IMG/VR virus record: IMGVR_UViG_3300045988_113306
DNA from: a virus
DNA length: 64,000 bases
Direction: 5' to 3' (one strand)
Position 1 is the first letter of the stretch. Every line of letters starts with the position of its first letter. The notes below the pieces were generated by a model. It worked only from the letters and a program-made list of their open reading frames with translations, was not told the DNA's origin and ran no database searches. Positions 12,288 to 54,442 of the stretch are shown in pieces. A program made the position numbers and the translations under genes.

Positions 12288-12290
12288 ACG

Positions 12291-12298: not shown

Positions 12299-12324
12299 AA
12301 CAATCTTTTTCACTTATGCAATAC

Positions 12325-24783: not shown

Positions 24784-24874
24784 AGCAAACAAAATCCCCG
24801 AATGGGGCCGTTACACACCCAAACGAGGCTTTAGAAGGTTAAACTTGCGGTAACGGACGCAAATATAGTCTTAG

Positions 24875-24947
24875 TGGCGGGAGCAGGAATCGAACCTGCG
24901 ACCTCTGAGTTATGAGCACAGCGAGCTTCCGACTGCTCCATCCCGCG
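24875..24947 (-). tRNA. tRNA with CAU anticodon (Met, or Ile2 if lysidine-modified)
   Basis: Hand-folded cloverleaf: 6 Watson-Crick acceptor pairs plus C1:C72 mismatch, U8, D arm GAGC/GCUC, anticodon loop CUCAUAA, T arm GCAGG-UUCGAUU-CCUGC. Confidence 0.8.
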
Positions 24948-24963
24948 ATGTTGTTTTGTACGG

Positions 24964-24994
24964 CAAAGTTAACAACTTTTTTCGTAACGACAAA
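24964..24994 (-). promoter_or_regulatory. Bacteroidota-type promoter for tRNA-Met (TTTG-N19-TAACTTTG on minus strand)
   Basis: -7 box 24964-24971 ends 17 nt before the tRNA 5' end; -33 at 24991-24994. Confidence 0.55.
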
Positions 24995-25027
24995 AAAATC
25001 CACGCTATTTTCAACAAACGGCGTGGA
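24991..25027 (-). terminator. intrinsic terminator downstream of tnpB
   Basis: CCACGC...GCGTGG stem followed on minus strand by ATTTTTTTG. Confidence 0.6.
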
Positions 25028-25200
25028 AAAATTACTTAAATAACCTAAAATTAATACCTATGGAAACAAAAAGCAAAGATATGAAAAACGGACGACTTTC
25101 ACAAGCCATCCGCATAATTAATCACTTAAATCCAATATTATGATGAAAGAATTGCTATTTAGCTTTGACATACTCCCACGGCTAAAGCGCGTGGGATTCT
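25028..25200 (-). ncRNA. expected omega/reRNA of TnpB (position inferred)
   Basis: TnpB guide RNAs overlap the tnpB 3' end and right end; hairpin TCCCACG/CGTGGGA spans the stop codon (about 25172-25195); boundaries not determined. Confidence 0.35.
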
Positions 25201-26334
25201 TGTGTGCAAACGCAGGATGCCGTATCAGATACGGTCTTACTCCCGCTCCACAATTCGGAGATGCCCCTCCGAAGTATATTCTCAGCCGCATTGAGGTCGC
25301 GGTCGTTTACCTTGCCGCATTCGGGACATACCCATTCGCGGTCGCTAAGTTTCAATCCTTTGTTCACATATCCACACTCGCAAGTTTTTGAGGACGGATA
25401 GAATCTATCTATCTTATGAACCGTCACGCCATACTTTCGTGCAATGTGTTCAAGTCTGCCGACAAATTCAGCATGAGCCAAATCCGACATCTTGCGTCCC
25501 CACATTCTCGTCATGCCGAGCAACGATAAATCTTCAATGAAGATATAATCATATTTGCGGCACAACTCATGTGCGAGCTTCCACTGAAAAAACTCGCGTT
25601 TGTGAGTGATGTTCTCGAACTCGCGGCACACATCCTTGCGTCTGCGCTGTCGGTTATTCGAGCCTTTCTTGCATTTGGATAGTGAGCTGGATTTGCGCCT
25701 AACGTTGTCAAGGTCGGATTTTAAGAACTGTGGATTCCTTACGGTCGTACCGTCCGATAAGGTCATATAGGTCTTTAAGCCGAAGTCAATGCCTACGGAT
25801 GCACCATTGTGTGTCTTTCCGTATGCTTTCGGGTCTGCGTCCGTTGTGATTATCAGATAGTATTCACCGAGTCGTGAACGCTTGATTGCGATTCGTTTAA
25901 CCCTGCCCTCATAAGGCCGCGAATAAGAGAATTTGAAACGCTTCTTGATTGTATTCACCGTCAATGCGTTCCCGTTCAAAGAGAATCCTCCCTGCTTATA
26001 GACAATAGAACAGAAGTCAATCGCTTTTCTGAATTTAGGAGGCCGTTTTGCCAGCTTCTTAAAGAAACGTTGATATGATGTATCAAGGCGTTCAAGAATC
26101 TCTTGTGTCGTCTGTGAATGTAGCAGAGTGCGTTTTATTCTCTTTGCATAATGCTTCTGCATCGCATTCTTTGAGATAAACTTACCAAACAGCGAATAAT
26201 ACCTCTTCTGCAATGCAAGGGAGTGATTCCATACAAAGGAAGCCTCTCGCAGCATAGCCGAGAGATGCTTATTCCGCTTGGAATTATAGAGCTTATATTT
26301 GTACGAAATCATATACAAAGATAGTGATTAATTA
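25116..26334 (-). mobile_element. tnpB-only IS200/IS605-type (IS1341-like) element, no tnpA
   Basis: tnpB flanked by a 12-nt inverted repeat TAATTAATCACT (25116-25127) / AGTGATTAATTA (26323-26334); boundaries tentative. Confidence 0.55.
25182..26312 (-). CDS. tnpB: TnpB RNA-guided endonuclease (IS605 OrfB family)
   Basis: RuvC motifs GIDFG, IFIEDL, DRDLNAAENI; zinc finger CECG...CPECG; ATG at 26312; 376 aa. Confidence 0.9.
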   Translation of the reverse strand: MISYKYKLYNSKRNKHLSAMLREASFVWNHSLALQKRYYSLFGKFISKNAMQKHYAKRIKRTLLHSQTTQEILERLDTSYQRFFKKLAKRPPKFRKAIDFCSIVYKQGGFSLNGNALTVNTIKKRFKFSYSRPYEGRVKRIAIKRSRLGEYYLIITTDADPKAYGKTHNGASVGIDFGLKTYMTLSDGTTVRNPQFLKSDLDNVRRKSSSLSKCKKGSNNRQRRRKDVCREFENITHKREFFQWKLAHELCRKYDYIFIEDLSLLGMTRMWGRKMSDLAHAEFVGRLEHIARKYGVTVHKIDRFYPSSKTCECGYVNKGLKLSDREWVCPECGKVNDRDLNAAENILRRGISELWSGSKTVSDTASCVCTQESHAL

Positions 26335-29602: not shown

Positions 29603-29959
29603 TCACCATCCTCCGTATTGGTCTTGCTGTGATGGGGCGGAATGCTGTCCGCCGTCGGCGTTGTAAGCCTGCTTCTCCTTTGCGTTGCCGATGAACGGCT
29701 TAGCCTTGATAGCGTCTACGCCAAGGCGGTCGATGGTTTCCTTGTTGTATTTCAGCTTCAGCGAATGTGAGTCGCCGTATTGACTGTTACGGCTTTCGTA
29801 CATGTTTACGCCAAGGTATGCGGCGGTTCCGCTTTCGTTGACGAAAATGTCGGCTGTGTCTATCGGTATGATTACCGCACGCTTGCCCGTGTTCGGGTTG
29901 GTTTGGAGCGTTGCCCCGTCAATCTTCAGGAGATTGATGTTAAGTGAATAATTAGCCAT
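29603..29959 (-). CDS. hypothetical protein, 118 aa, paralogue of 26397..27023
   Basis: See 26397..27023; C-terminus QQDQYGGW. Confidence 0.45.
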   Translation of the reverse strand: MANYSLNINLLKIDGATLQTNPNTGKRAVIIPIDTADIFVNESGTAAYLGVNMYESRNSQYGDSHSLKLKYNKETIDRLGVDAIKAKPFIGNAKEKQAYNADGGQHSAPSQQDQYGGW

Positions 29960-34244: not shown

Positions 34245-34363
34245 GTGTGAACTATGAATTGCCGTTTGAATGTTGGATATTGAGGTGTATTTGTAAATGA
34301 ATGTAAACTAAATTATGCTATTTGTTAAATAATATATAATATATGAAAAATTACGGCATAACA

Positions 34364-34395
34364 TTTGGTATTTGCAACCAAATGTTATAACTTTG
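34364..34395 (+). promoter_or_regulatory. Bacteroidota-type promoter (TTTG-N20-TAACTTTG) heading the rightward module
   Basis: -33 box 34364-34367, -7 box 34388-34395. Confidence 0.55.
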
Positions 34396-34812
34396 CTCCC
34401 GCAATCGAACATTGACACAATGAAATGGTGAAGTTAACACTAACGCAATTGATTTTGTGTGAATTATTACTTTTGAGTGAGCGTGTTAATGTAGCTATTT
34501 TGCGCTTTACCATTCAGATAAATTCCTGAGTTTCAGGAGGATTAAAAACGAGTTGAACCGTTAACAGGTGAACTATGTCCCAACTGAAACATGAATTAAT
34601 TGCCAATGGCGGGGCAAAAACCGCGTTGACAGCCAAAACCAATCTATTTTGTGAGTATTGAACTTATGTCGTAATTAAGGGATAAAGGGGCAAAATACAT
34701 ACGTTAATACAATTCCAAGCGAATAGGGCACGGGTTATTCCCATTACGTGTTAGAGCCAGGAAGCCGTGACGTTGGAATATAACGGGCAGGTTGCGTTCA
34801 TCGGAAAGACAT

Positions 34813-34880
34813 CGGGGAGATATGGAAACATTGAGCGGGTCGAGCCGCCTCCCCGAACCAACCAATTAAACTTACAATAT
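34813..34880 (+). promoter_or_regulatory. intergenic cassette 1: stem-loop plus ACCAAT box
   Basis: CGGGGAG/CTCCCCG stem; ACCAAT at 34861, 20 nt before the ATG. Confidence 0.6.
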
Positions 34881-35000
34881 ATGAAAGAGAAACTAATCAT
34901 AGGCGCGAAGTGCGTCGCCGTCATCGTGGCGTGTGTGTCAGCGGTAGTGTTGTTAATCGGATTCATGCGTGTGTGTGAGTCGATTGGATTTACAATGTGA
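34881..35000 (+). CDS. 39-aa membrane peptide
   Basis: MKEKLIIGAKCVAVIVACVSAVVLLIGFMRVCESIGFTM; ATG at the cassette-defined distance. Confidence 0.45.
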   Translation: MKEKLIIGAKCVAVIVACVSAVVLLIGFMRVCESIGFTM

Positions 35001-35096
35001 TGAGCGAGGCAATTGTGTGCATCGGCGGAGATTCCCCGATGTCGACTGTGACGAGATGATATGGGAGATGTTTCCCAAGTATTAAACTTTAAATAG

Positions 35097-35145
35097 GCGG
35101 TATTGAACCGCTCTCAATGTTTAACCAATAAAAAACTTACGTAAA
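35097..35145 (+). promoter_or_regulatory. intergenic cassette 2
   Basis: GCGGT/ACCGC stem; AACCAATAAAAAACTTA, ACCAAT at 35124. Confidence 0.55.
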
Positions 35146-35334
35146 ATGAGGTACAGAATGTCATTGAACTATGGCCGCCTGACGGCGACAATTCGCGAGT
35201 ATGAGGACGGCAAGGTGGTGAGCAAATGGAGAACCGCAAGGCTGTGTAAAAAGGAATTCGAGTCGCTTGAATATTTCACCGAGAGCGACATCAAGAGTTA
35301 CTTGAACCGCGAAGAGCTTCAGCGAATAAAGTGA
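35146..35334 (+). CDS. small hypothetical protein, 62 aa
   Basis: Track ORF; carries copy 1 of the 35-nt repeat. Confidence 0.5.
   Translation: MRYRMSLNYGRLTATIREYEDGKVVSKWRTARLCKKEFESLEYFTESDIKSYLNREELQRIK
35168..35202 (+). repeat. 35-nt perfect direct repeat, copy 1
   Basis: ACTATGGCCGCCTGACGGCGACAATTCGCGAGTAT, identical to 36003-36037. Confidence 0.9.
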
Positions 35335-35338
35335 GCCG

Positions 35339-35392
35339 AGGAGGTTGGGCGACCGACCTCCTGCATTGTTCAACCAATTAAAACTTAGAATT
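35339..35392 (+). promoter_or_regulatory. intergenic cassette 3
   Basis: AGGAGGT/ACCTCCT stem; TCAACCAATTAAAACTTA, ACCAAT at 35373, 20 nt before the ATG. Confidence 0.6.
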
Positions 35393-35770
35393 ATGGAAAG
35401 ATACGATTATTTAGAAGTAGTGACGAACGATGTTAAGGGTTACATTGAAAGTGAAATCACAATGTCGGACTATTCCGACCGCGACGAACTTGAAGAGTAC
35501 CTGAACGAAGTTCTGTGGACTAACGACGGAGTGACCGGCAACGGCTCGGGGTCTTACACGTTCAATAAGTGGGAAGCCGAGGAGAATCTGTGCCACAATC
35601 TCGACCTGTTGGGCGAGGCTCTGAACGAATTTGGATGCGAGGCGAGCTATCTCGTTGAGAAAGGCGCCGAATCATGCGACGTGGCGATACGTTGCTATCT
35701 CCTCAATCAAGCCATCTCCGCAGCTCTTGACGAGTTGTGGGAGGATGAGGATGAGGATGACGACGATTGA
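35393..35770 (+). CDS. acidic hypothetical protein, 125 aa (EDEDEDDDD tail)
   Basis: Track ORF 35345..35770 shortened to ATG 35393. Confidence 0.55.
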   Translation: MERYDYLEVVTNDVKGYIESEITMSDYSDRDELEEYLNEVLWTNDGVTGNGSGSYTFNKWEAEENLCHNLDLLGEALNEFGCEASYLVEKGAESCDVAIRCYLLNQAISAALDELWEDEDEDDDD

Positions 35771-35774
35771 ATTG

Positions 35775-35834
35775 TGGAGGCTTGTGTTACGGCATTGGCC
35801 TCCAACCCTGTTTAATCCATTTAAAAACAAGATT
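35775..35834 (+). promoter_or_regulatory. intergenic cassette 4 (degenerate box)
   Basis: TGGAGGC/GCCTCCA stem; AATCCATTTAAAAAC, 20 nt before the ATG. Confidence 0.5.
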
Positions 35835-36073
35835 ATGAGAATTTATGAATTAGCCCCAATCTCAGGCCAAGGCCAAAAGAGCTTCTACGGCAAGGCAATC
35901 GTCACCATTGACGACAACGGAGTTGAAACGCTTTTAAGCTACTGCACCAAGATTTGCGAGAGGCATCCCGACGGCAGCATAAAGAAGCTGTGGGACGGAT
36001 GGACTATGGCCGCCTGACGGCGACAATTCGCGAGTATTGCGGTCTTAACAAGAAACAGTGGGAAGCGTTATGA
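35835..36073 (+). pseudogene. small ORF apparently split by a frameshift inside the 35-nt repeat
   Basis: MRIYELAPISGQGQKSFYGKA...LWDGWTMAA* (to 36017); the other frame continues DYGRLTATIREYCGLNKKQWEAL* to 36073. Confidence 0.45.
36003..36037 (+). repeat. 35-nt perfect direct repeat, copy 2
   Basis: Identical to 35168-35202. Confidence 0.9.
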
Positions 36074-36080
36074 ATCATGG

Positions 36081-36135
36081 GAGGGCGAATGAATCGCCCT
36101 CTGCCAACCAATTAACAATTAAAACTTAAAGAATC
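36081..36135 (+). promoter_or_regulatory. intergenic cassette 5
   Basis: GAGGGCGA/TCGCCCTC stem; CCAACCAATTAACAATTAAAACTTA. Confidence 0.6.
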
Positions 36136-36273
36136 ATGAAACTAAAAGACCTACATTGCGACAAGCTCACTGCAACGGTACAAGACTATTTCGACTGTTT
36201 CCTTGAAAATCGCGGTGACGGCATAATATATGACGAGGATGATGAAAAGTGTTACCGCTACGAGTATCTTTAA
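36136..36273 (+). CDS. small hypothetical protein, 45 aa
   Basis: Own translation MKLKDLHCDKLTATVQDYFDCFLENRGDGIIYDEDDEKCYRYEYL; bracketed by cassettes. Confidence 0.45.
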   Translation: MKLKDLHCDKLTATVQDYFDCFLENRGDGIIYDEDDEKCYRYEYL

Positions 36274-36280
36274 CCCATGG

Positions 36281-36325
36281 GCGGCCGAGGGCCGCTTTCA
36301 ATCACCAATTTAAAATTAACGAATT
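36281..36325 (+). promoter_or_regulatory. intergenic cassette 6
   Basis: GCGGCC/GGCCGC stem then TTTCAAT; TCACCAATTTAAAATTAAC. Confidence 0.6.
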
Positions 36326-36562
36326 ATGAAACGTAGAGAATTTTCAAACGAGGCCAAGAAGGCCGTAGCTATCCAAATCATCACATTGTTGGAGAACAGC
36401 ATCCTTGAAGAAAACGGGCCGCAGTCCTTCAGTGTATGGTGCGAGAACGGTGCGGTGTTCGACGATGAGGATTGCGCGGAAGAATGCAAGGAGCTGATGG
36501 AGCTGATGGAGAGCCGAGTAGAGGCGGTGGTGTTCAGTCCGATGGCGATTGATTTCGAGTAG
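36326..36562 (+). CDS. small acidic hypothetical protein, 78 aa
   Basis: Track ORF. Confidence 0.55.
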   Translation: MKRREFSNEAKKAVAIQIITLLENSILEENGPQSFSVWCENGAVFDDEDCAEECKELMELMESRVEAVVFSPMAIDFE

Positions 36563-36567
36563 CACCG

Positions 36568-36618
36568 TGGGGCGACAAGCCCCATGACAATTATTAACCC
36601 AATTAAAATTTAACAGAT
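36568..36618 (+). promoter_or_regulatory. intergenic cassette 7
   Basis: TGGGGC/GCCCCA stem; TTAACCCAATTAAAATTTAAC. Confidence 0.6.
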
Positions 36619-36786
36619 ATGAATGTTTACAAGTTCAGATTGATTGAAACGTATTCAAAAGTAGTCAGCATCGAGGCCGATTCAAGGGAAGAGGCATTTG
36701 ATATGCTTGACCAAAAGGTTTCCGAGGGCGATATTGACGCGATGGACAACTACGACGACTACGAGCGAGAAATCTACGACGCCTAA
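36619..36786 (+). CDS. small acidic hypothetical protein, 55 aa
   Basis: Own translation MNVYKFRLIETYSKVVSIEADSREEAFDMLDQKVSEGDIDAMDNYDDYEREIYDA. Confidence 0.5.
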   Translation: MNVYKFRLIETYSKVVSIEADSREEAFDMLDQKVSEGDIDAMDNYDDYEREIYDA

Positions 36787-36793
36787 CGGCGAG

Positions 36794-36839
36794 GTGGGGC
36801 GCAAGTCCCGCTGCTTCTAACCAATTAAATTTAGGTAGT
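36794..36839 (+). promoter_or_regulatory. intergenic cassette 8
   Basis: Stem with GCAA tetraloop; CTAACCAATTAAATTTAGG, ACCAAT at 36820, 20 nt before the ATG. Confidence 0.6.
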
Positions 36840-37166
36840 ATGAATAACAAAGAAAAAACAGTAAAGTTGATTAACGCAATCTTGAACAAACTCTATAACG
36901 ATTTCAACATTAAAGTCATTGATGTGAACGGGAATTGCGTAAAAGCGATAATCAAGCATGAGATGGACGAATTAGAACGTAAGCTGTCGATTGCCATGAT
37001 ATTTGAAGTGTGTGACGAAATAGAGAATGTGCCGTTTTATGGCAAGATTCTTATACCAAATACAATCAGAGTTGTAGACTTAAACACCGTTTACACGTTC
37101 CGTGATGAGTGCAAGTTCACAGATGAAGATTTAGGGTCAATACTTAACAACCCTATTTTCAATTGA
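36840..37166 (+). CDS. small hypothetical protein, 108 aa
   Basis: Track ORF. Confidence 0.55.
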   Translation: MNNKEKTVKLINAILNKLYNDFNIKVIDVNGNCVKAIIKHEMDELERKLSIAMIFEVCDEIENVPFYGKILIPNTIRVVDLNTVYTFRDECKFTDEDLGSILNNPIFN

Positions 37167-37171
37167 TTTAT

Positions 37172-37216
37172 AGAGGTCGCAAGACCTCTCGCTATTCACC
37201 AACAATTAAACTTATT
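37172..37216 (+). promoter_or_regulatory. intergenic cassette 9
   Basis: AGAGGTC-GCAA-GACCTCT; TTCACCAACAATTAAACTTA. Confidence 0.6.
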
Positions 37217-37492
37217 ATGAAAAGACTATTTATCGTGACTGCTCCGATAGATTTCGGACGGAATGAGCTGGAAGAGGCGTTGTGGATTGAGGATATTGAC
37301 ACCGAAAAGATAACCGAGATAATGGACGGCAATCCCGACTTTCAATTGTGGGACTTGGTAGACTTCGTGGAGTTCTGCAACAACCAAGAGTTCGATGTCG
37401 AAGGCTGCTGGATGCAGTCGGTTGAGGTTGAAGTCCCCGACGACTACAGTCCTAACAAGTCGACATGGTACATGAAGCTGATTCGGTTCTAA
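37217..37492 (+). CDS. small hypothetical protein, 91 aa
   Basis: Track ORF 37163..37492 shortened to ATG 37217. Confidence 0.55.
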   Translation: MKRLFIVTAPIDFGRNELEEALWIEDIDTEKITEIMDGNPDFQLWDLVDFVEFCNNQEFDVEGCWMQSVEVEVPDDYSPNKSTWYMKLIRF

Positions 37493-37523
37493 ACAACGAG
37501 GACAAAAATTGTAAGGGTAATAT

Positions 37524-37574
37524 GTAGGGCCATTGTAGGCCCTACTACAATCACCAACTTAAAACTTAAAAACT
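37524..37574 (+). promoter_or_regulatory. intergenic cassette 10
   Basis: GTAGGGCC/GGCCCTAC stem; ATCACCAACTTAAAACTTA. Confidence 0.6.
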
Positions 37575-37820
37575 ATGAAAGTATATGTTTACACTGAGTC
37601 GTGGTACACGCCCGACGAGTATGTGGGCATCGCCGATGTTCAGGTATTCAAATACAAGGCCGACGCATTGTCGTATCTCGCAATGAAGCGTGACGACTTT
37701 CTTAATTACCCGGATGATGAATGGGTGTGTGATTGGGGCGATAAAGACGGCTCGACATTCGCACATCTGTCAGCGGGCAATGACGATGTAGTGATGAGCG
37801 TGACCGAGCGTGACATTTAA
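37575..37820 (+). CDS. small hypothetical protein, 81 aa
   Basis: Track ORF. Confidence 0.55.
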   Translation: MKVYVYTESWYTPDEYVGIADVQVFKYKADALSYLAMKRDDFLNYPDDEWVCDWGDKDGSTFAHLSAGNDDVVMSVTERDI

Positions 37821-37823
37821 TGA

Positions 37824-37846
37824 TTAACCATTTAAATTTTATCATT
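37824..37846 (+). promoter_or_regulatory. intergenic cassette 11 (box only, no hairpin)
   Basis: TTAACCATTTAAATTTT, 20 nt before ATG 37847. Confidence 0.45.
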
Positions 37847-37921
37847 ATGTTTTTCGTATGTGTATTAATTTGGGCCGTAGTCACGGTGTTTAAAGGACTT
37901 ACTGATGGCAGGGCCGACTAA
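37847..37921 (+). CDS. possible 24-aa membrane peptide
   Basis: MFFVCVLIWAVVTVFKGLTDGRAD; called only because the box-to-ATG spacing fits. Confidence 0.3.
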   Translation: MFFVCVLIWAVVTVFKGLTDGRAD

Positions 37922-37926
37922 GAAAC

Positions 37927-37974
37927 GGAGGTCGCAAGACCTCTGACATCACCAATAACTAAAACTTTAAGATT
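37927..37974 (+). promoter_or_regulatory. intergenic cassette 12
   Basis: GGAGGTC-GCAA-GACCTCT (same core as cassette 9); CATCACCAATAACTAAAACTTTA. Confidence 0.6.
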
Positions 37975-38250
37975 ATGACACAGAAAGAATTTGAACAAAC
38001 GAAAGAATGGGTCGAAAATAACACTGGATTAGAGTTTATAGACGACCAAGCATTGTATGACAAGGATGGAGCCTATTTTGAAAAGGCGATAGACTCCGAC
38101 AAACGAGTCAAGCTTTGCATAGACAATGACCGTTCCGCCGAGTTGTGGATGCTCTTCAACGATGATTCATGCGTTGAAATATTCACATCAAGTTCACAGA
38201 ACAATTGGCGATGTTTGAGAGTGTTCGCACACATCGTGACTTACAACTAA
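37975..38250 (+). CDS. small hypothetical protein, 91 aa
   Basis: Track ORF. Confidence 0.55.
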   Translation: MTQKEFEQTKEWVENNTGLEFIDDQALYDKDGAYFEKAIDSDKRVKLCIDNDRSAELWMLFNDDSCVEIFTSSSQNNWRCLRVFAHIVTYN

Positions 38251-38253
38251 GAC

Positions 38254-38269
38254 GGAGGCTTCGGCCTCT
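38254..38269 (+). promoter_or_regulatory. orphan stem-loop GGAGGC-TTCG-GCCTCT
   Basis: UUCG tetraloop hairpin not followed by a box or a gene. Confidence 0.55.
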
Positions 38270-38321
38270 GACAGACCGTCGTTGTGAAACGGCCTTAATT
38301 GTAAGTTTAAGTGTTTAATGG

Positions 38322-38388
38322 GCGGCCATTTAGTTGGCCGCTTTCAATGCGGGATGTTCCGCAGACAACCAATTTTAACTTAATCATC
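38322..38388 (+). promoter_or_regulatory. intergenic cassette 13
   Basis: GCGGCCA/TGGCCGC stem then TTTCAAT; second small hairpin GCGG/CCGC; ACAACCAATTTTAACTTA. Confidence 0.6.
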
Positions 38389-38580
38389 ATGAAAGAAACA
38401 GAAAACGGCTTTGAGGAAAAAGTAGGAGGCTTCGTGCGCATACTGCTTATTTTCATCGGTGTGATGATTCTCTTGTCAATGTGCGAGCGGTCATCATGTA
38501 GCGGAGGCGATTACGATGACCGATGGGACAGGTTGCAACACGAGGTGGACACAGACCCATACTACCAACAATGGAAGTGA
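38389..38580 (+). CDS. small membrane protein, 63 aa
   Basis: Track ORF 38311..38580 shortened to ATG 38389; FVRILLIFIGVMILLSM helix. Confidence 0.55.
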   Translation: MKETENGFEEKVGGFVRILLIFIGVMILLSMCERSSCSGGDYDDRWDRLQHEVDTDPYYQQWK

Positions 38581-38590
38581 CCTAAACCCG

Positions 38591-38643
38591 AAGGGAGATT
38601 AAGTTCTCCCTTTGCAAATCATTAACCAATTAAAGAAACTATT
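38591..38643 (+). promoter_or_regulatory. intergenic cassette 14
   Basis: AAGGGAGA/TCTCCCTT stem; CATTAACCAATTAAAGAAAC. Confidence 0.6.
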
Positions 38644-39303
38644 ATGAGAATTTCAAACGAAACAATCCGACATTTTGAGTCATTGGGTATCGAAGTCAAG
38701 AACCATCCCGGAACAGAGAGCGATTGGCGTGAAAAGGTGTGGAATGACGAATATAAGTGGTCTTACAACTACGGCAAGGACGCAACTCTCGGCTACGACG
38801 AAAACGGCAAATCAATCCATCCGACGCACGAGCAACTACACAAACGTGCGACCGAATGGGCCGACAGATACACTCCGAGAAAGATGAACAATTGGTACGA
38901 CGCCAATATGCTCTACGTGGAGTATGACGACGGTGAGAATCACCGCGTCATCTGCCAAAAAGTCAGTGTCAAGTCAAAGGAAATCACGGTCGAATACATC
39001 GACAAGCTGATTGCAAAGGACAAGAAAGCGTACAGTGGCACATTCGGCAAGTTCACGGATGCCATGAACAAAGTGCTTGAAACATTGGGGTACACCGGCC
39101 GGTTCTGGGTATATCCCACGACATACGGCATCGGGGTATGGGTATTCTACAACTTCAACGCTGAAAAGAACATCAAGGATGTGGAGTCCATACTGAAGGC
39201 CAATAACGTTCAATACTACAACGAGTATAGTGACGCGCATTACGTATATCGATTCAAGGTGTCAAAAAAGCAGGCTAACATGAAGCTCATTGCAGCTTGC
39301 TGA
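38644..39303 (+). CDS. hypothetical protein, 219 aa
   Basis: Track ORF; largest gene of the cassette array. Confidence 0.6.
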   Translation: MRISNETIRHFESLGIEVKNHPGTESDWREKVWNDEYKWSYNYGKDATLGYDENGKSIHPTHEQLHKRATEWADRYTPRKMNNWYDANMLYVEYDDGENHRVICQKVSVKSKEITVEYIDKLIAKDKKAYSGTFGKFTDAMNKVLETLGYTGRFWVYPTTYGIGVWVFYNFNAEKNIKDVESILKANNVQYYNEYSDAHYVYRFKVSKKQANMKLIAAC

Positions 39304-39310
39304 CTTATGG

Positions 39311-39354
39311 GAGGGGTTGGCCCTCTATCTATCAACCAATTAAATTTTAAAGAT
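39311..39354 (+). promoter_or_regulatory. intergenic cassette 15
   Basis: GAGGG/CCCTC stem; TATCAACCAATTAAATTTTAAAG, ACCAAT at 39335, 20 nt before the ATG. Confidence 0.6.
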
Positions 39355-39720
39355 ATGAAAACAAGAACGATGAATGACGGCTATGTATGGCTGGTGGTCG
39401 AGAAACCCTTGGCATTGCAGATGTTCAAATGCAACGAGGATGTCTACAAGCTGTACGACGACGGCAGCGAGAGCCTTTGCGAGGACGAGAACGAGATTAA
39501 GTTGTCCGACGCCGAGTTCGGCATAGGATTGGGATTCGTGGACGACATGAACCCGACCTGCCCGACTTGCGGTGCGCAGCTTACAAGGATGACGGCAAAT
39601 GGTGGGACACTGGGCTATGCTCTTCCGGCCGTGACGGATGGACACCCGGAGAGCTTGAAACTTATTATGAGCGAGAGTGTGAGTAAACCGCTTTCTAACC
39701 GCGTTTCTCGGCTCGGATGA
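39355..39720 (+). CDS. hypothetical protein, 121 aa, one CPTCG motif
   Basis: Track ORF 39307..39720 shortened to ATG 39355. Confidence 0.55.
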   Translation: MKTRTMNDGYVWLVVEKPLALQMFKCNEDVYKLYDDGSESLCEDENEIKLSDAEFGIGLGFVDDMNPTCPTCGAQLTRMTANGGTLGYALPAVTDGHPESLKLIMSESVSKPLSNRVSRLG

Positions 39721-39775
39721 TAAAGTGTCCATTCGGGCGGAGAAGTCGCGGGAGAAGGCAAATAAATAGACGATT

Positions 39776-39961
39776 ATGAATAAGGATATGGAACAACTAG
39801 GCGCAAATCAAGCCGATTCTGTTGCAAAGAAAATTACGAAATTAACCAAGTCATTAAAGAACTCAACTGAGCTTGGATATGAAACAAAAGAAATCAAACA
39901 GGAGATTCTCGAAAGATGTGCAGAACTGAGCAATCTCATGATTTGTATGATATTTCACTGA
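39776..39961 (+). CDS. small hypothetical protein, 61 aa
   Basis: Track ORF; no cassette upstream. Confidence 0.45.
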   Translation: MNKDMEQLGANQADSVAKKITKLTKSLKNSTELGYETKEIKQEILERCAELSNLMICMIFH

Positions 39962-39967
39962 TTTACG

Positions 39968-40006
39968 GCGGGGTCATTCCCGCTCTCTAACCAATTAAAA
40001 CAAACT
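39968..40006 (+). promoter_or_regulatory. intergenic cassette 16
   Basis: GCGGG/CCCGC stem; CTCTAACCAATTAAAACAAAC. Confidence 0.6.
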
Positions 40007-40248
40007 ATGACAAAGAAAGATTTGCTAAAATTGCTCCCCAACTGCAAGATGGTGGGGTGGACGAGCCAAGCGTGGAGATAAACGGCAAGCGATACCTGTT
40101 GTGGGGATTCATGCGTGATGACAGACAGATATGGGTAGATATGGAAAGCGATGACGGCTTCGGCCGGTGGCTGACACCGATAAACGACTTTCCGAGAGGT
40201 GTTGTAAAGTACATCTACCAATGCGCTGAACGAAAGCTGGTCAAGTGA
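40007..40248 (+). pseudogene. small ORF apparently frameshifted at a G4 run
   Basis: Cassette-positioned ATG 40007 gives MTKKDLLKLLPNCKMVGWTSQAWR*; one extra G in GGGG (40054-40057) would join it to track ORF 40057..40248. Confidence 0.45.
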
Positions 40249-40251
40249 ACA

Positions 40252-40296
40252 TAGAGGGGAGCAATCCCCTCTACTAACCAATAAAAAACAACAACG
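40252..40296 (+). promoter_or_regulatory. intergenic cassette 17
   Basis: TAGAGGGGA-GCAA-TCCCCTCTA; CTAACCAATAAAAAACAAC, ACCAAT at 40277, 20 nt before the ATG. Confidence 0.6.
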
Positions 40297-40611
40297 ATGA
40301 AAAAGAATGAAATCAATTTGAAAAAGGAAGGCTTCAATTTAAATGCAAATGTCTATCCAGCAGGCTACCATTATAAGGAGATTATGAGGCTCGGACGAGT
40401 GTTCCCCACCACCAAGGCGCAGGCTGCATATTTCATACAACTGGGCAGATACCCCGACGCATACAACATGGATGATGTGGAGCTTGTGGAAAGGGAACTC
40501 AACCCTTACGGCTTCGATGGAGAGTATGAATACACCAAAAGCAAAACAATGGTTCGTCTTGTCAATCTTGACGACATGTGCAAGGCGTTGAAACTGAAAT
40601 ACGGCCTTTAA
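40297..40611 (+). CDS. small hypothetical protein, 104 aa
   Basis: Track ORF. Confidence 0.55.
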   Translation: MKKNEINLKKEGFNLNANVYPAGYHYKEIMRLGRVFPTTKAQAAYFIQLGRYPDAYNMDDVELVERELNPYGFDGEYEYTKSKTMVRLVNLDDMCKALKLKYGL

Positions 40612-40618
40612 TCCAAGT

Positions 40619-40663
40619 GGGCTTGAAACAAGGCCCGCTCCTAAACACCCAAACAACAGCAAC
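40619..40663 (+). promoter_or_regulatory. intergenic cassette 18 (imperfect stem, degenerate box)
   Basis: GGGCTT/AAGGCCC stem with one bulge; ACACCCAAACAACAGCAAC. Confidence 0.4.
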
Positions 40664-40951
40664 ATGATTAAGAACGAAGTTTTAAACTACATCCCAACAG
40701 CCACGCTGAGGGAAGTGTGCGACTTGTGGCACAAAGTAAACGACATAGTTAACGGCTCCGAGGACTGCTACAAGCAGTTCGACGTGACAAACGATGATGG
40801 TTGGTACGTTGATAGGGACATTGACACGGATTCGTGCCGTATCAGAATAACGACGGACATCGAAGTAAACAGAACATATCTATGGGAATCCATATCCCTT
40901 TTCTATGAAGGCGATTGGATAGCAGACACCGACATCCACGAGCTTGAATAG
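40664..40951 (+). CDS. small hypothetical protein, 95 aa
   Basis: Track ORF. Confidence 0.55.
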   Translation: MIKNEVLNYIPTATLREVCDLWHKVNDIVNGSEDCYKQFDVTNDDGWYVDRDIDTDSCRIRITTDIEVNRTYLWESISLFYEGDWIADTDIHELE

Positions 40952-40965
40952 TTCATAGAATAATT

Positions 40966-41009
40966 GGAGGCTGAAAAAGCCTCTGCCTAATAACCAAAAA
41001 AGAAAAAGC
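40966..41009 (+). promoter_or_regulatory. intergenic cassette 19
   Basis: GGAGGCT-GAAAA-AGCCTCT; TAATAACCAAAAAAGAAAAAGC. Confidence 0.55.
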
Positions 41010-41312
41010 ATGATATACAAATCGTACAAATTCAAAGACAGAAACGGGCAAGAGTTTAAGGTTCGTTTTTATTTCACCGGCATCTACACCTTCGTTGACT
41101 GCAACGGGGAACACGAAATAGGCATGTGGTGGAAGGAGCCACTGATGGTCGGCAAGCACAATGACAAACCATCGAAAGACAGGAACAATGTCAGGTATCA
41201 CGCTCGTCCGTTCAGTCAGGAATATGCCTACCGCTACGCCGACTTCTCGCTCGGAGAGGTGGCGAGGAGGATAGCGATAGCCGAGATTATGAGAGTCAAT
41301 GCCACGCTATGA
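41010..41312 (+). CDS. small hypothetical protein, 100 aa
   Basis: Track ORF. Confidence 0.55.
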   Translation: MIYKSYKFKDRNGQEFKVRFYFTGIYTFVDCNGEHEIGMWWKEPLMVGKHNDKPSKDRNNVRYHARPFSQEYAYRYADFSLGEVARRIAIAEIMRVNATL

Positions 41313-41342
41313 CCGATTGTTAACTTTTAAAACTCCAACAGT

Positions 41343-41531
41343 ATGAAAGAATCAATCAAAGTAAAAGAGCTAAATTCAATGCTCAACAAAGTTGAAGCCA
41401 TGTCCAAGCAAGTGACGCGGATAAAACAACGTAACGACTTGTCCTCTGATGACAAATATATGGCCTTAAAAGTAGGGCAAGAACTACATACTCTCAATCA
41501 ATATATTAAGATATGGTTATTTCAAATATAA
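41343..41531 (+). CDS. small hypothetical protein, 62 aa
   Basis: Track ORF. Confidence 0.5.
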   Translation: MKESIKVKELNSMLNKVEAMSKQVTRIKQRNDLSSDDKYMALKVGQELHTLNQYIKIWLFQI

Positions 41532-41545
41532 AAACGACGCAAAAA

Positions 41546-41577
41546 CTTGTGCAATCAAAAAATTGTCGCTACCTTTG
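41546..41577 (+). promoter_or_regulatory. candidate promoter (CTTG-N20-TACCTTTG)
   Basis: -7 box 41570-41577; lies between the last array gene and the terminator. Confidence 0.35.
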
Positions 41578-41628
41578 TGTCAGCAAGCATAGCATAACGA
41601 TAACACTGCATTTTTGAATTATTCATCA

Positions 41629-41665
41629 AAACACCTCGTTTGAGAAAATAAGGTGTTTTTTATTT
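41629..41665 (+). terminator. intrinsic terminator ending the small-gene array
   Basis: AAACACCT/AGGTGTTT 8-bp stem followed by a T-run. Confidence 0.75.
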
Positions 41666-41673
41666 GAAAATAT

Positions 41674-41704
41674 TTTGCGGTTTCAAAAAAATGATTTACA
41701 TTTG
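41674..41704 (+). promoter_or_regulatory. Bacteroidota-type promoter (TTTG-N19-TACATTTG)
   Basis: -33 box 41674-41677, -7 box 41697-41704; about 145-nt leader to ATG 41856. Confidence 0.55.
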
Positions 41705-43226: not shown

Positions 43227-43265
43227 GGAGGTAATTCCTCCCACCAACCAAAATCCCCCTTTGAT
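43227..43265 (+). promoter_or_regulatory. intergenic cassette 20 (outlier)
   Basis: GGAGG-TAATT-CCTCC; CACCAACCAAAAT, 19 nt before ATG 43266. Confidence 0.5.
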
Positions 43266-44017: not shown

Positions 44018-44809
44018 ATGGCAACGTATGCGTATCTAAGGTATTCAACAAATTTGCAAGACGAGGCACAACAGTTGAATACGATAACAAACTACCTCAA
44101 GCAAAAAGGCATGACACTCGATAGAACTTATATGGATGAGGGCATATCGGGCGGTATAAGCTATACAAAACGTAATCTCTATGACTTATGCAAGGCTATC
44201 AAGCAAGGCGATACCGTGGTCGTGAGCGAAGTTAGCCGATTGACACGTTCAGGAATATCGGAGCTTTCGGAAATCATAGAGAAGCATTTCAAGACCAATA
44301 AACTTAGGCTTATTATATGTAATGTGGGCCTTGACATTGACTGCTCTGACATAAATCCCATGACGGAGCTACAGCTTGCAATGCTTGCCACTTTTGCCAA
44401 AATAGAGCGTAATTTGATTAAAGAGCGCACCAAATCTGCTCTTGATGTGCGTAAGCAAAAACTCGCCAACGGTGAAACTCTAATCAGCAAGGCTGGAAGA
44501 GCATACACCAAGTTAGGCCGACAGGACGACAATGCAGGCACCGCGTGGGACAAGGCATTGAACAACTCCATCGAAACCAATAAGAAAAAAGCGCAGGACA
44601 ACGAGAACAACATACGCTTCGCCCGATGGCTCGGCGTGTGGGAATCCAAGAACGGCGTCGTTGACCGACATACCGACCTCGCCCCAATTCTCGCCGAGGT
44701 CAGCGCTTTGGGCCTAAAGACATCATCCGGCATGGAGTTCAAAAAAGAATCCCTAAGACAGATGATATATCGAACCCACGAAAGAAAATTGCAAACAATC
44801 AACGCATAA
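44018..44809 (+). CDS. serine recombinase (resolvase/invertase catalytic domain), 263 aa
   Basis: MATYAYLRYSTNLQDEAQQ (catalytic Ser context), GISGG, VVSEVSRLTRS, ERNLIKERTKSAL; ATG at 44018. Confidence 0.7.
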   Translation: MATYAYLRYSTNLQDEAQQLNTITNYLKQKGMTLDRTYMDEGISGGISYTKRNLYDLCKAIKQGDTVVVSEVSRLTRSGISELSEIIEKHFKTNKLRLIICNVGLDIDCSDINPMTELQLAMLATFAKIERNLIKERTKSALDVRKQKLANGETLISKAGRAYTKLGRQDDNAGTAWDKALNNSIETNKKKAQDNENNIRFARWLGVWESKNGVVDRHTDLAPILAEVSALGLKTSSGMEFKKESLRQMIYRTHERKLQTINA

Positions 44810-52111: not shown

Positions 52112-52411
52112 ATGGCTACATTAATTCACGATAACATAATCCCGATGGTGGCGGAAGTCTACGGAGTGACTGTGGAGGACATACTCGGCAAGACACGGAA
52201 ACAGCCTATAGCCGAGGCAAGACAGATGGCGATGTATATCTATCGTTCTCACGCTCAATTTAAGTTCGATGCCATTGCGAATATTTTTGGACGTAAGCAT
52301 CCAACCGTTATAAGTGGGGTGCAATCAGCGTTAGCGTTAATCGACGTGGATAATACGACTAAACAGAAATACAATCAAATTCTCGTCAAACTATGCCCCA
52401 ATCTCAATTGA
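52112..52411 (+). CDS. stand-alone DnaA domain IV-like HTH protein, 99 aa
   Basis: VEDILGKTRKQPIAEARQMAMYIYRSH...FGRKHPTVISGV parallels the DnaA C-terminal DNA-binding domain. Confidence 0.6.
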   Translation: MATLIHDNIIPMVAEVYGVTVEDILGKTRKQPIAEARQMAMYIYRSHAQFKFDAIANIFGRKHPTVISGVQSALALIDVDNTTKQKYNQILVKLCPNLN

Positions 52412-53115
52412 CCGTATTGGCTTCGGGCAGTCAAGGCAACGGATATGTAATCAAATCAGACAATGAAGTGCTGATACTTGAAGCTGGCGTTCCGTTCAAG
52501 GAGTGTTCCAAATCACTCACCCACGACATCAGCCAAGTTAAGGCGGTGATATGCTCCCACGGGCATAAAGACCATTCAGCTTACATCAAACAATACCAAC
52601 AGCACGGCTTGACCGTATATTCCAACGCAGATGTCGCAAGCGACTTCGACGGAGTGATTGCGCTGGAGCCAATGAAAAAGTATCACCTCGGCGGCTTTAC
52701 GGTGACACCGCTTAGAGTACCGCACGGTGACTGCCCCAATTACGCCTATCATATCACACTACCCGACGGTCAGACATTGCTGTTCGCGACTGATTTGGAA
52801 TACTTCGGCTATGGGTTCAAGGGCATTAATCACCTCGCCATTGAATGTAATTATTCCGATGACATCCGCATTGACGCGATGCTCAACGGAGCGGAGCTGA
52901 GAAGCCAAAGTCGCAACCATCTGAGCTTGGACAAGTGCGTGGAGGTCATAAAACGCCTCAAATCGCCGTCTTTGTCCTCGGTGGTATTGTTGCACCTATC
53001 ACAGGGATTAGGTGACGCAGAGGGCTTTAAAAAGCGCATTTTCGACGAGTGCGGAATACGGGCCGAAGTGGCGGACAAAGGGACTGTGCATGTTTTGAAT
53101 AAAGACGAGTTTTAG
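52393..53115 (+). CDS. metallo-beta-lactamase fold hydrolase
   Basis: VICSHGHKDHS (HxHxDH) plus later conserved His and Asp residues; 240 aa. Confidence 0.65.
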   Translation: MPQSQLTVLASGSQGNGYVIKSDNEVLILEAGVPFKECSKSLTHDISQVKAVICSHGHKDHSAYIKQYQQHGLTVYSNADVASDFDGVIALEPMKKYHLGGFTVTPLRVPHGDCPNYAYHITLPDGQTLLFATDLEYFGYGFKGINHLAIECNYSDDIRIDAMLNGAELRSQSRNHLSLDKCVEVIKRLKSPSLSSVVLLHLSQGLGDAEGFKKRIFDECGIRAEVADKGTVHVLNKDEF

Positions 53116-53147: not shown

Positions 53148-53186
53148 TGATGCGAATTAGTATGAATCAGTTTTATGAAATAAAAA

Positions 53187-53262
53187 GTCCGAGAAAGTGT
53201 TGGGTAGCGGAAACGCCCCAAGGTTGCATACTAACCTCGCAGCACTTCGCTCGGATTTTTTT
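53187..53262 (+). promoter_or_regulatory. terminator-like structure in the leader of KilA-N copy 2
   Basis: TCCGAG..AAGTG pairs with CACTT..CTCGGA around two small inner hairpins, followed by TTTTTTT 5 nt before the ATG. Confidence 0.5.
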
Positions 53263-53266
53263 AACT

Positions 53267-54061
53267 ATGAATGAAATTCAAGTTTTTAATTACAACGGTA
53301 GCGGAATCGCGTTTAGCACCGACAAGTGTGTAATGGTGTCAGCTACCGCAATGGCGAAACCTTTTGGTAAATCCCCGACTGATTGGCTTAAAACTCGCAG
53401 TGCCAAACAGTTTGTCAAAGAATTGGGCGAGTTGAAGAATATCAACTCGGTTGATTTAGTGAAAGTTACATACGGTGACAACGGCGGCACATGGATGCAC
53501 GAAGATGTCGCGTTGGAGTTCGCACGTTGGTTGGCCCCCAAGTTTGCCATTTGGTGCAACGACCGAATAAAAGAATTGCTAACATATAGCAAAACTAATA
53601 TGCCCGCTATCCCGCAGACTTTCGCTGAAGCGTTGCAGCTCGCCGCCGACCAAGCCAAGCAGATTGAACAACAGCAAGCACTCCTATTGGCACAAGGCGA
53701 GGCAATAGCCGAAAAGGACAAGGCTATATCGGAACTGCACGAAAAGACTTCTTACCTTGATAAAATCCTGCAAAGCAAAGAAACTATCACCACGACTCAA
53801 ATAGCTCAAGACTATGGAATGTCGGCGAAGAAATTCAATGTTGAGCTTCGCAACATGAAGATTCAACGCAAAGTGGGCGGTCAGTGGATTCTTTACTCTC
53901 CCTACAACACTATGGGTTATGTCCATTCCGAAACTTTTATCCCAGAAAGCTCCACCACAAGGAAAGTTGTTACCCTTTCTAAATGGACTCAAAAAGGGAG
54001 GCTGTTTTTGTATGAGGAGATGAAGAAACGCGACATCCTGCCGTTGATTGAACGCAGATAG
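53267..54061 (+). CDS. KilA-N domain / antirepressor (KilAC-like C-terminus), copy 2
   Basis: FNYNGSGIAF...KSPTDWLKT...GTWMHEDVALEFARWLAPKFAIWCNDRIKELL; ATG at 53267 (MNEIQVF). Confidence 0.7.
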   Translation: MNEIQVFNYNGSGIAFSTDKCVMVSATAMAKPFGKSPTDWLKTRSAKQFVKELGELKNINSVDLVKVTYGDNGGTWMHEDVALEFARWLAPKFAIWCNDRIKELLTYSKTNMPAIPQTFAEALQLAADQAKQIEQQQALLLAQGEAIAEKDKAISELHEKTSYLDKILQSKETITTTQIAQDYGMSAKKFNVELRNMKIQRKVGGQWILYSPYNTMGYVHSETFIPESSTTRKVVTLSKWTQKGRLFLYEEMKKRDILPLIERR

Positions 54062-54182: not shown

Positions 54183-54254
54183 TGCCTCGTAGTATAACGG
54201 CTATTACATCAGTTTTTGGCACTGAATATGGTGTTTCGACTACACCCGAGGCAA
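54183..54254 (+). tRNA. tRNA-Gln (UUG)
   Basis: Hand fold: 7-bp acceptor with U1-A72, anticodon stem TCAGT/ACTGA, loop TTTTGGC, T arm GGTGT-TTCGACT-ACACC. Confidence 0.8.
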
Positions 54255-54353
54255 CTAAGGGATATGCAAGAGAGCAGTCCTGCGGCGTGAGGCGCTAATG
54301 ATACCATATTTATCTTATTTTTTCGCGGATGCAATGCAAGCACATCCGCACAT

Positions 54354-54424: not shown

Positions 54425-54442
54425 CTAATATTTTTGACTTCA

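Follow-up and report, generated by a model that had tools for sequence, protein, structure and literature searches.

In a 64,000-nucleotide (nt) stretch of viral DNA (IMG/VR record IMGVR_UViG_3300045988_113306; hereafter the window), a run of small plus-strand genes between 34.8 and 41.0 kb is punctuated by a repeated two-part element. Nineteen spacers of this region, and one more at 43.2 kb, share the same order of parts: the stop codon of one gene is followed by a GC-rich hairpin, then by a box of the form (TT)AACCAAT-TAAAA, and then by the ATG of the next gene. The feature is real, statistically overwhelming and widespread, and we class it as a regulatory cassette that is probably built around a translation leader without a Shine-Dalgarno (SD) sequence. 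The explanation that we favor, and that we judge somewhat likelier to be right than wrong, is that the gene block is a single operon, that each of its genes is provided with an RNA hairpin and an SD-less translation leader, and that the repeated unit serves in addition as a substrate for recombination.

The initial annotation had listed 16 boxes with a conserved core, three degenerate boxes and one outlier, and all of them lie at the positions given for them (coordinates accompany the individual cassettes below). The spacing reported between box and ATG also holds, at 17-24 nt with a mode of 20 and a longer distance of 29 nt at box 36107, and the box begins 0-19 nt, mostly 4-8 nt, after the end of the stem. 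Matches to the 16-nt consensus AACCAATTAAAACTTA with three or fewer mismatches number 11, compared with 1.23 +/- 1.10 in dinucleotide shuffles, and 10 of the 11 are on the plus strand between 35372 and 40004. An unbiased 6-mer count, made with no prior motif in the 32 nt upstream of the 21 genes of the region, returned ACCAAT as the top word (12 of 21 genes vs 0.25 expected, p = 2e-18). The strict core precedes 16 of these 21 genes and 2 of the 88 other genes (Fisher p = 5e-13). Positions, enrichment and the near absence of the core elsewhere bear out the proposal that the cassettes are genuine, strand-specific and limited to the hyperplastic block of small genes. These genes are also as small and as hard to annotate as had been claimed, with two weak PHROG matches of unknown function among 20 proteins.

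A Bacteroidales host, not narrowed to a particular member of the order, is well supported by sequence comparison, because the nearest terminases from cultured phages, although only 27% identical, come from phages of Bacteroides and Phocaeicola, because contigs that carry homologues of one array gene have been assigned to metagenome-assembled genomes (MAGs) of Muribaculaceae, Paludibacteraceae, Prevotella and other Bacteroidales, and because the Bacteroidota -7 promoter element, TAnnTTTG, is enriched across the window (75 copies vs 44.5 +/- 6.7). Ribosome profiling and reporter assays in Flavobacterium johnsoniae revealed that A residues at -3, -6, -12 and -13 promote SD-less initiation, and bS1 was placed near -12 to -15 (PMC6847099). 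The enrichment of A in Bacteroidota has been summarized as -3, -6 and -11 to -15, and the modal 5' untranslated region of B. thetaiotaomicron is 23 nt (PMC7366714). The array leaders follow this pattern closely. When the 19 leaders are anchored at the ATG, A is found at -3 in 16 of them, at -6/-7 in 13 and at -11 to -13 in 16-18, there is no G between -24 and -10, and the A-tract is in sharper alignment with the ATG than with the ACCAA core. The distance from box to ATG is about the usual Bacteroidota leader length, and the predicted unpaired probability is 0.64 for the array leaders vs 0.54 for other genes (p = 0.002). With A at -3, -6, -12 and -13, no SD and low predicted structure, the part of the box from TAAAA to the ATG is, on sequence criteria, a very good host-type initiation region. 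Of the roles that the initial annotation had offered for the box, one in translation fits best, given the positioning of the box relative to the ATG and its agreement with Bacteroidota initiation, and a role as promoter is not borne out. The pattern described in the literature is statistical and involves no fixed word, whereas the array has a near-invariant ACCAA(T) that belongs to one class of phage genes.

Two arrangements bear on where the leader lies in the mRNA. The box can occupy a tight gene junction without a hairpin, as it does at 37827 in the window and at several junctions in a related contig (L126; sequences used for comparison are designated by L and a number). In two IMG/VR lineages, L091 and L079, a separate -7 element precedes every small gene and is followed by the box after 5-7 nt, which puts the box there at about the 5' end of the mRNA.

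The hairpin is constant in structure and variable in sequence. All 19 stop-to-box segments form a hairpin, with z scores of -1.1 to -5.1 relative to shuffles and a median of about -3.3, and the stem sequence changes between cassettes while the structure is kept. Among 84 cassette hairpins from seven genomes, on which strand and loop tests were done, the plus-strand RNA fold is more stable than the minus-strand fold in 54 cases vs 27 (Wilcoxon p = 6e-4), tetraloops are the most frequent loop size, and 20 of the 48 tetraloops are of the GNRA or UNCG type compared with one reverse-complement equivalent. The first cassette of the array (34812-34870) is 88% identical to positions 5633-5693 of L123, a phage with which the window otherwise shares almost no DNA, and this pair, the only orthologous hairpins available, shows a single compensatory replacement of G-C by U-A in the outer stem. 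The plus-strand bias, the GNRA and UNCG loops, the varying stems and the compensatory change point to a structure selected in mRNA and not to a DNA cruciform or a protein-binding site. The idea that the first cassette is a conserved antitermination RNA was rejected, as it was found only in the window and L123.

Most of the hairpins had been said to lack U-tracts, and in the window all 19 do. In a set of 11 genomes, a T-rich tail follows 8 of 122 cassette hairpins and a true U-tract follows 2, so that about 98% are without a U-tract. A GC-rich hairpin with an immediate U-tract, which is the signature of an intrinsic terminator, is found only at 41628-41668 and in none of the array hairpins. The hairpins are unlikely to be efficient terminators because they lack U-tracts and because 19 terminators in series would silence the distal genes; instead, they would act as decay barriers or weak attenuators. 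Hairpins between cistrons are known from the repetitive extragenic palindromic (REP) elements of E. coli operons and from the RNase III sites between the T7 early genes. The array hairpins resemble both in lying between the cistrons of what would be a long polycistronic RNA, right after the stop codon and without terminator U-tracts. Unlike RNase III substrates, however, their stems are too short (5-10 bp), and unlike REP elements they have no REP-like sequence conservation. Processing or stabilization is proposed here by analogy. A tRNA-like hairpin-NCCA mimic serving as an RNase P substrate was also considered and rejected, since the distance from stem end to ACCA ranges from 0 to 19 nt.

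The motifs around the array suggest that it is transcribed as a unit. Transcription diverges at about 34.0-34.4 kb, with minus-strand genes to the left and, from 34.9 to 56.3 kb, genes on the plus strand. At the start of the array (34364-34395, plus strand), a regular-expression scan located a promoter of the host type, TTTG-N21-TAACTTTG. An inverted repeat with 13-bp arms (ATAACATTTGGT...ACCAAATGTTAT) at 34357-34389 overlaps the -33 and -7 elements of this promoter and resembles an operator through which a repressor would control the early operon. At the other end, a canonical intrinsic terminator (41628-41668, plus strand; dG -12.8, z -3.5) consists of an A-tract, a hairpin at 41628-41659 and then UUUUUUAUUU, and it is directly followed by the next host-type promoter, TTTG-N19-TACATTTG (41674-41704, plus strand). 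No TAnnTTTG occurs on the plus strand from 34468 to 41570, and near-matches with at most one mismatch are found in 4 of the 19 cassettes, compared with 2.9 +/- 1.5 in shuffles. Full TTTG-N17-22-TAnnTTTG promoters stand just before and just after the arrays, and never inside them, in the window, L123, L126 and L132, the promoter before the array being judged where the sequence includes that end. In L124, the single full promoter found lies after the array, and two isolated -7 matches lie inside it. TAnnTTTG is absent from about 33 kb of array plus strand in the window, L123, L126 and L132, vs roughly 12-20 copies predicted from the window-wide density of about 0.35-0.6 per kb per strand, and the element appears to be avoided inside the arrays, not merely missing. 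From the lack of internal host promoters, the bracketing promoters, the U-tract terminator at the array end and the hairpins without U-tracts, we infer that the block at about 34.4-41.67 kb is one polycistronic operon. The absence of TAnnTTTG from every cassette agrees with the earlier remark that the box differs from the TTTG/TAnnTTTG promoters of the host. The accompanying suggestion that the box is itself a phage promoter finds no support, as the cassettes lack a -7 element and host-type promoters only bracket the arrays. Reading the box as a degenerate host -7 element that yields leaderless transcripts was rejected as well, because there is no enrichment over shuffles and the spacing of 17-24 nt is too variable.

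The cassette is not peculiar to this phage. The 219-aa gene at 38644-39303 has 273 homologues, and near them (in L123, L124/L125, L126/L127, L132, L134, L138 and L139) most small genes are preceded by a stop codon, a hairpin, a (cta)ACCAA(T/C/A) box and an ATG. The same type of cassette occurs in IMG/VR contigs that share no detectable proteins with the window (L057, L028, L027, L011 and L007/L002). In total, 133 cassettes, 119 of them with a hairpin and with leaders of genome-specific flavors, were found in 11 sequences, although the number of independent lineages is smaller, L057 and L028 being closely related. Not every Bacteroides phage has the cassette, since BS-TP1 has no such arrays in the first 100 kb of its 112-kb genome. 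The initial annotation had known of no equivalent in Bacteroidota phages. The literature agrees, in that no description of a hairpin-plus-leader cassette in these phages turned up, but the sequences show the cassette to be widespread in contigs of Bacteroidales phages.

Comparison of relatives also indicates that the cassette is where genes are exchanged. When 29 window genes, 22 from the array and 7 from downstream of it, were compared, each relative had homologues of 2-5 in all and of 0-4 of the array genes. DNA similarity to the window takes the form of single open reading frames (ORFs), which start within the box or just a few nt ahead of the ATG and end at the stop codon or shortly before it. 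Three one-gene insertions or deletions (of 96, 56 and 234 aa) distinguish L057, L028 and L027, and in each both junctions lie within TTAACCAAT, with an overlap of 26-28 nt. In L124 and L134, which belong to the window's own family, junction J1 and the right side of J4 fall in the leader, J2 falls directly after the stop codon and before the hairpin, J3 falls in a hairpin that is repeated on both flanks of a 451-nt insertion, and one junction is inside an ORF. L121 and L122, which are near-identical copies of the phage, show no variation inside the array. The expectation that breakpoints in relatives would coincide with the cassettes was thus confirmed, with junctions of insertions, deletions and swaps in the box or the hairpin; for the window itself the evidence consists of the ORF-sized blocks of similarity. 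In the relatives, the cassette is a recombination substrate for the gain, loss and replacement of single genes.

Put together, these observations suggest the following mechanism. The region at about 34.4-41.67 kb would be a single operon of about 21 small accessory genes, on which host RNA polymerase would start at the 34364-34395 promoter and stop at the U-tract terminator. Each intercistronic spacer would act in the mRNA as a two-part expression cassette. Its first part, a GC-rich hairpin located 2-15 nt after the stop codon, often with a GNRA or UUCG loop and with no U-tract, would block 3'-to-5' decay and would at most weakly attenuate transcription, not fully terminate it. Its second part, the G-free leader of about 20 nt with the form (TT)AACCAAT-TAAAA-N(5-9)-ATG, is predicted to be unpaired and would serve as a strong SD-less initiation region like those of Bacteroidota, its A residues being at -3, -6 and -11 to -13. 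The ACCAA word at about -20 to -15 would extend this region, and since the word is common to unrelated phages, the most economical guess is that the host ribosome or bS1 reads it. Because every gene is preceded by a copy of this 25-50 nt unit, the unit would also serve recombination and permit genes to be inserted, deleted or swapped as plug-in modules.

Several points weigh against this explanation. Shuffling the hairpin in silico leaves the accessibility of the leader unchanged (0.637 vs 0.644), which gives no support to the hairpin as an insulator that keeps the leader single-stranded and makes the function of the hairpin something that we infer. None of the published determinant positions coincides with the ACCAA word. 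Apart from the two strict cores noted above, the other 88 genes of the phage, structural genes included, lack the box; such restriction to one gene class is unexpected for a generic initiation signal and therefore suggests class-specific control. Other lineages have different conserved words at this place, CGAACT in L123 and AGTACGAT in L138 and L139, and conservation of the word may come in part from common descent, gene conversion or a lineage-specific reader. The single operon is deduced from promoter and terminator motifs, and one cassette in L057 and L028 lies behind a true U-tract terminator, so that transcription would have to be re-initiated there.

It may be, then, that ACCAA marks class-specific control, or that it persists by descent or gene conversion as a sequence for gene exchange. 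A bolder proposal, which we hold only tentatively and think doubtful, is that ACCAA(U) is a dedicated signal, a portable element that recruits the ribosome or enhances initiation in place of an SD, is read by bS1 or another component of the 30S subunit, and serves at the same time as a sequence for gene exchange between unrelated phages. In two contigs from Bacteroidales/Prevotella MAGs (L138 at 8500-13000 and L139 near 6100), many hairpins are followed by AGTACGAT(T/A)A, which replaces or precedes the ACCAA box and appears to be a lineage-specific alternative at the box position. A second recurrent leader word, (T/A)AACCACTACAA(C), stands directly 5' of the ATG of several genes outside the array (at 43738 and 44878 on the plus strand, at 29603-29959 and 9591-10040 on the minus strand, near 12744 in L126 and near 5036 in L135); it has an AACCA core in common with the box but lies about 12 nt from the start codon.

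The rival that fares best makes the cassette a site of processing or regulation, although we consider it unlikely. According to this explanation, the ACCAAU leader beside the hairpin is cleaved or bound by a sequence-specific factor, perhaps a host enzyme of the RNase E/G type or a phage nuclease or translational repressor resembling RegB or RegA, and the outcome is either a set of hairpin-capped monocistronic mRNAs or the joint shut-off of the gene class. Intercistronic processing sites classically place an A/U-rich single strand without G immediately 3' of a stable hairpin, as for RNase E and in the early regions of T7 and T4, and the box leader has just this layout. The limitation of the box to one gene class would also be accounted for, and in L091 and L079, where the box begins the primary transcript, cleavage between hairpin and box would generate the same 5' end. 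Moreover, processing is compatible with the favored explanation and does not exclude a role in translation. However, the window yielded no candidate for such a nuclease or RNA-binding protein, and the spacing of stem and box is not fixed, at 0-19 nt. Nor is there an antisense partner in the window: CCAATTAAA has no reverse-strand copy, and a predicted c4-2 antisense RNA (53184-53261), considered as a regulator of the boxes, was rejected because it has no general complementarity to them. Finally, the published binding data for RbpB indicate a preference for AU-rich sequence only, with no ACCAAU motif (PMC11697453).

Less likely still is that the cassettes are units like the promoter-early stem-loops (PeSLs) of T4-type phages, which the initial annotation had named as the closest analogue. 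The hairpin would then be a terminator or attenuator, the box a promoter for host RNA polymerase with a phage sigma factor or activator, and each gene a separate unit of transcription, its leader very short or missing. In favor of such per-gene promoters are the presence of the box in one gene class and its absence from the other 88 genes, the sigma factors that some Bacteroides phages encode (BS-TP1 gp7), the L057/L028 cassette directly behind a canonical U-tract terminator, and the resemblance of a few boxes to a degenerate -7 element (TAAATTTA, TAAATTTT). On the other hand, the boxes lack the -7 consensus, their near-matches to it are not above shuffles, and the Pfam annotation of the window contains no sigma factor or RNA polymerase. 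A start site 3' of the box would exclude the ATG-registered A residues at -11 to -13 and -6 from the mRNA and leave their register unexplained, and leaderless mRNAs are rare in Bacteroidota, at 3.7% (PMC7366714) or 5.5% (PMC9723704). The box of L091 and L079 lies downstream of a host promoter and does not replace one, nearly all of the hairpins lack U-tracts, and the same box recurs in unrelated phages that share no detected proteins.

The comparison with PeSLs nevertheless holds in part. Like PeSLs (PMC2839356, PMC4122927), the cassettes are composites of a stem-loop, present in 19 of 19 cases, and an expression signal, they precede small ORFan genes in hyperplastic regions, and in relatives the junctions of insertions, deletions and replacements lie in the repeats, consistent with modular gene shuffling. 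PeSLs, however, contain a promoter with the host sigma-70 consensus and an SD site, and their stem-loop terminated transcription in reporter assays (PMC2839356, PMC4122927), whereas the array cassette has no host promoter element, SD site or U-tract, and its conserved part is a leader positioned relative to the ATG. The phage also differs from those that carry PeSLs in having a tape-measure protein, in not being T4-like and in its Bacteroidales host. Thus the analogy stands for layout and evolutionary role, as the junctions in relatives attest, and falls for the promoter half, which lacks a -7 element.

A second precedent is the start-associated sequence (SAS) and extended start-associated sequence (ESAS) of Cluster K mycobacteriophages, with which the cassette shares an asymmetric word, in one orientation, just upstream of the starts of non-structural genes (PMC3203893). 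The SAS precedes 11-19 non-structural genes of different families, many copies have an inverted repeat just upstream, and a role in translation was proposed and not proven (PMC3203893); its function was still untested in 2025 (PMC12699233). The SAS is GGGATAGGAGCCC and includes an SD core, and the 17-bp inverted repeats of the ESAS are conserved in sequence, do not pair as RNA and are thought to be sites for a DNA-binding protein (PMC3203893). In contrast, the box, (TT)AACCAATTAAAA, consists of A, C and U only, does not match GGGATAGGAGCCC and has no SD core, and a role in recombination is documented for it here. The array stems, unlike the ESAS repeats, vary in sequence, pair well, show compensation, and have RNA tetraloops and a plus-strand bias. 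The cassette is therefore a functional analogue of PeSLs and of SAS/ESAS and a member of neither. It is also distinct from hairpin promoters of the N4 type, as its stem and loop sequences vary and the 2093-aa ORF of the window matches tape-measure families, not RNA polymerase.

An integron-like DNA system, in which hairpin and core form a site where the neighboring serine recombinase captures or excises promoterless cassettes, is highly improbable: promoterless, co-oriented small ORFs do lie behind one promoter, with hairpins that vary in sequence and keep their structure before a conserved core, junctions exactly in core or hairpin, and a Resolvase-domain gene a few kb downstream in the window (44018-44809), L124, L126 and L132, but the hairpins bear signatures of RNA and of the plus strand, are simple 5-10 bp stems with a single one-sided core and without the paired core sites of attC, the box lacks the dyad symmetry of small serine recombinase sites, the 26-36 nt of identity at the junctions suffice for homologous recombination, the examined stretches of the L057, L028 and L007 lineages have no resolvase homologue, and translation already accounts for how the box is registered to the ATG. 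Integron attC cassettes have a long imperfect palindrome and an adjacent tyrosine integrase; the Pfam context of the window revealed no such integrase, only the serine Resolvase gene.

The individual cassettes, all on the plus strand, vary around the common plan. Cassette 1 (34812-34880) has a composite hairpin (34812-34856; dG -21.4, z -2.4) and overlapping ACCAAC/ACCAAT boxes (34857/34861) before the ATG at 34881. It is followed by cassette 2 (35096-35145; hairpin 35096-35112, box 35124, ATG 35146) and by cassette 3 (35335-35392; hairpin 35335-35364, z -4.2), in which the box at 35373 is an exact AACCAATTAAAACTTA and the ATG is at 35393. Cassette 4 (35775-35834; hairpin 35775-35804, z -3.3) has a degenerate box, ATCCAT at 35815, and its ATG (35835) opens a DUF8033-like gene, 35835-36073, that matches only positions 9-55 of a 93-position PHROG profile. 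Copies of a repeat lie at 35165-35202 and 36000-36037, and the contig behind L122 breaks exactly at this repeat. The DUF8033-like gene looks truncated at the repeat, probably as the scar of a recombination; a frameshift that would restore the full-length gene was rejected, since the fused protein gives no longer profile match. In cassette 5 (36080-36135; hairpin 36080-36102, box 36107), an AATTAA segment is duplicated, and the ATG at 36136 is accordingly 29 nt away. Cassette 6 (36279-36325) comprises hairpin 36279-36297, box 36304 and ATG 36326, and cassette 7 (36566-36618; z -4.6) comprises hairpin 36566-36586, an ACCCAAT box at 36597 and ATG 36619.

A GCAA loop recurs in the hairpins of cassette 8 (36788-36839; hairpin 36788-36815, box 36820, ATG 36840), cassette 9 (37172-37216; hairpin 37172-37189, box ACCAAC at 37198, ATG 37217), cassette 12 (37926-37974; hairpin 37926-37945, box 37951, ATG 37975; z -4.7) and cassette 17 (40252-40296; hairpin 40252-40273, box 40277, ATG 40297; z -5.1), and a 17-nt hairpin core (family D11) is identical in cassettes 9 and 12. 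Cassette 10 (37524-37574) has hairpin 37524-37545, an ACCAAC box at 37553 and ATG 37575. Cassette 11 (37824-37846) is a box only, a degenerate ACCATT at 37827, with no hairpin, and it occupies the entire 26-nt gap between the stop codon at 37820 and the ATG at 37847. Cassette 13 (38253-38388; z -3.3) has hairpins at 38253-38270 (UUCG loop), 38278-38293, 38320-38343 and 38348-38363 before box 38368 and ATG 38389; this run of four to five consecutive hairpins within one 117-nt spacer looks like the piled-up remains of several cassettes. Cassette 14 (38589-38643; hairpin 38589-38614, box 38625, ATG 38644; z -5.1) precedes the 219-aa gene, and cassette 15 (39310-39354; hairpin 39310-39326, box 39335) leads to an ATG at 39355 that matches the start of a called 121-aa gene in L121.

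Cassette 16 (39967-40006; hairpin 39967-39984, box 39990, ATG 40007) is well formed, yet only a 24-aa ORF (40007-40081) lies behind its box. A 63-aa ORF in another frame (40057-40248) overlaps the 24-aa ORF, public gene calls place no gene in 39962-40296, and the gene here may be frameshifted or decaying. The array ends with cassette 18 (40616-40663; hairpin 40616-40639, degenerate box ACCCAA at 40647, ATG 40664) and cassette 19 (40966-41009; hairpin 40966-40984, box ACCAAA at 40993, ATG 41010). The outlying cassette (43227-43265) has hairpin 43227-43241, overlapping ACCAAC/ACCAAA boxes at 43243/43247 and ATG 43266.

The window is part of a phage genome of about 82.8 kb that has been recovered several times from human-gut metagenomes. 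Contigs of 82,769-82,842 bp carry identical proteins, L121 matches the window at 100% identity, and the window encodes a large terminase, a major head protein and the 2093-aa tape-measure protein. A megablast of cultured phages with the window gave no match, a protein-based search of IMG/VR for relatives with the 219-aa and 295-aa proteins returned nothing, and an Rfam scan of the array region found no family, its sole match being a chance microRNA below threshold. Elsewhere in the window, the c4-2 antisense RNA (Rfam RF02944, 61 bits; 53184-53261, plus strand) lies directly 5' of a KilA-N/ANT antirepressor gene (about 53268-54061), an order known from the immunity system of P1/P7 and present here in a phage of Bacteroidales. 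The tape-measure protein (56367-62648, minus strand) has a match to Pfam Hom_end_hint (Hint/intein-type) in precomputed annotation. An IS-type transposase gene (PHROG 506, E = 8e-88; 24874-26318, minus strand) adjoins a tRNA-Met gene within the block of replication genes, and further tRNA genes, for Gln and Cys, are at 54183-54425. A protein with a metallo-beta-lactamase fold (52393-53115, plus strand) has a faint match to the Anti-Pycsar protein Apyc1 and is a candidate nuclease for the degradation of cyclic-nucleotide defense signals.

How Bacteroidota choose start sites without SD pairing is an open question, and the arrays offer dozens of near-identical natural leaders of 20 nt that carry one invariant word. 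The ACCAA leader is a compact, directly testable candidate enhancer and a ready-made part for expression engineering in Bacteroides. With the box as a simple marker in the sequence, hyperplastic regions can be located and the start codons assigned to small genes corrected. Modular gene shuffling by means of repeated regulatory cassettes is not confined to phages of Proteobacteria, such as those of the T4 type, and extends to abundant Bacteroidales phages of the gut, in which the shuffling unit is centered on a translation signal and not on a promoter. Such cassette shuffling would help to explain the fast turnover of small accessory genes in gut phages.

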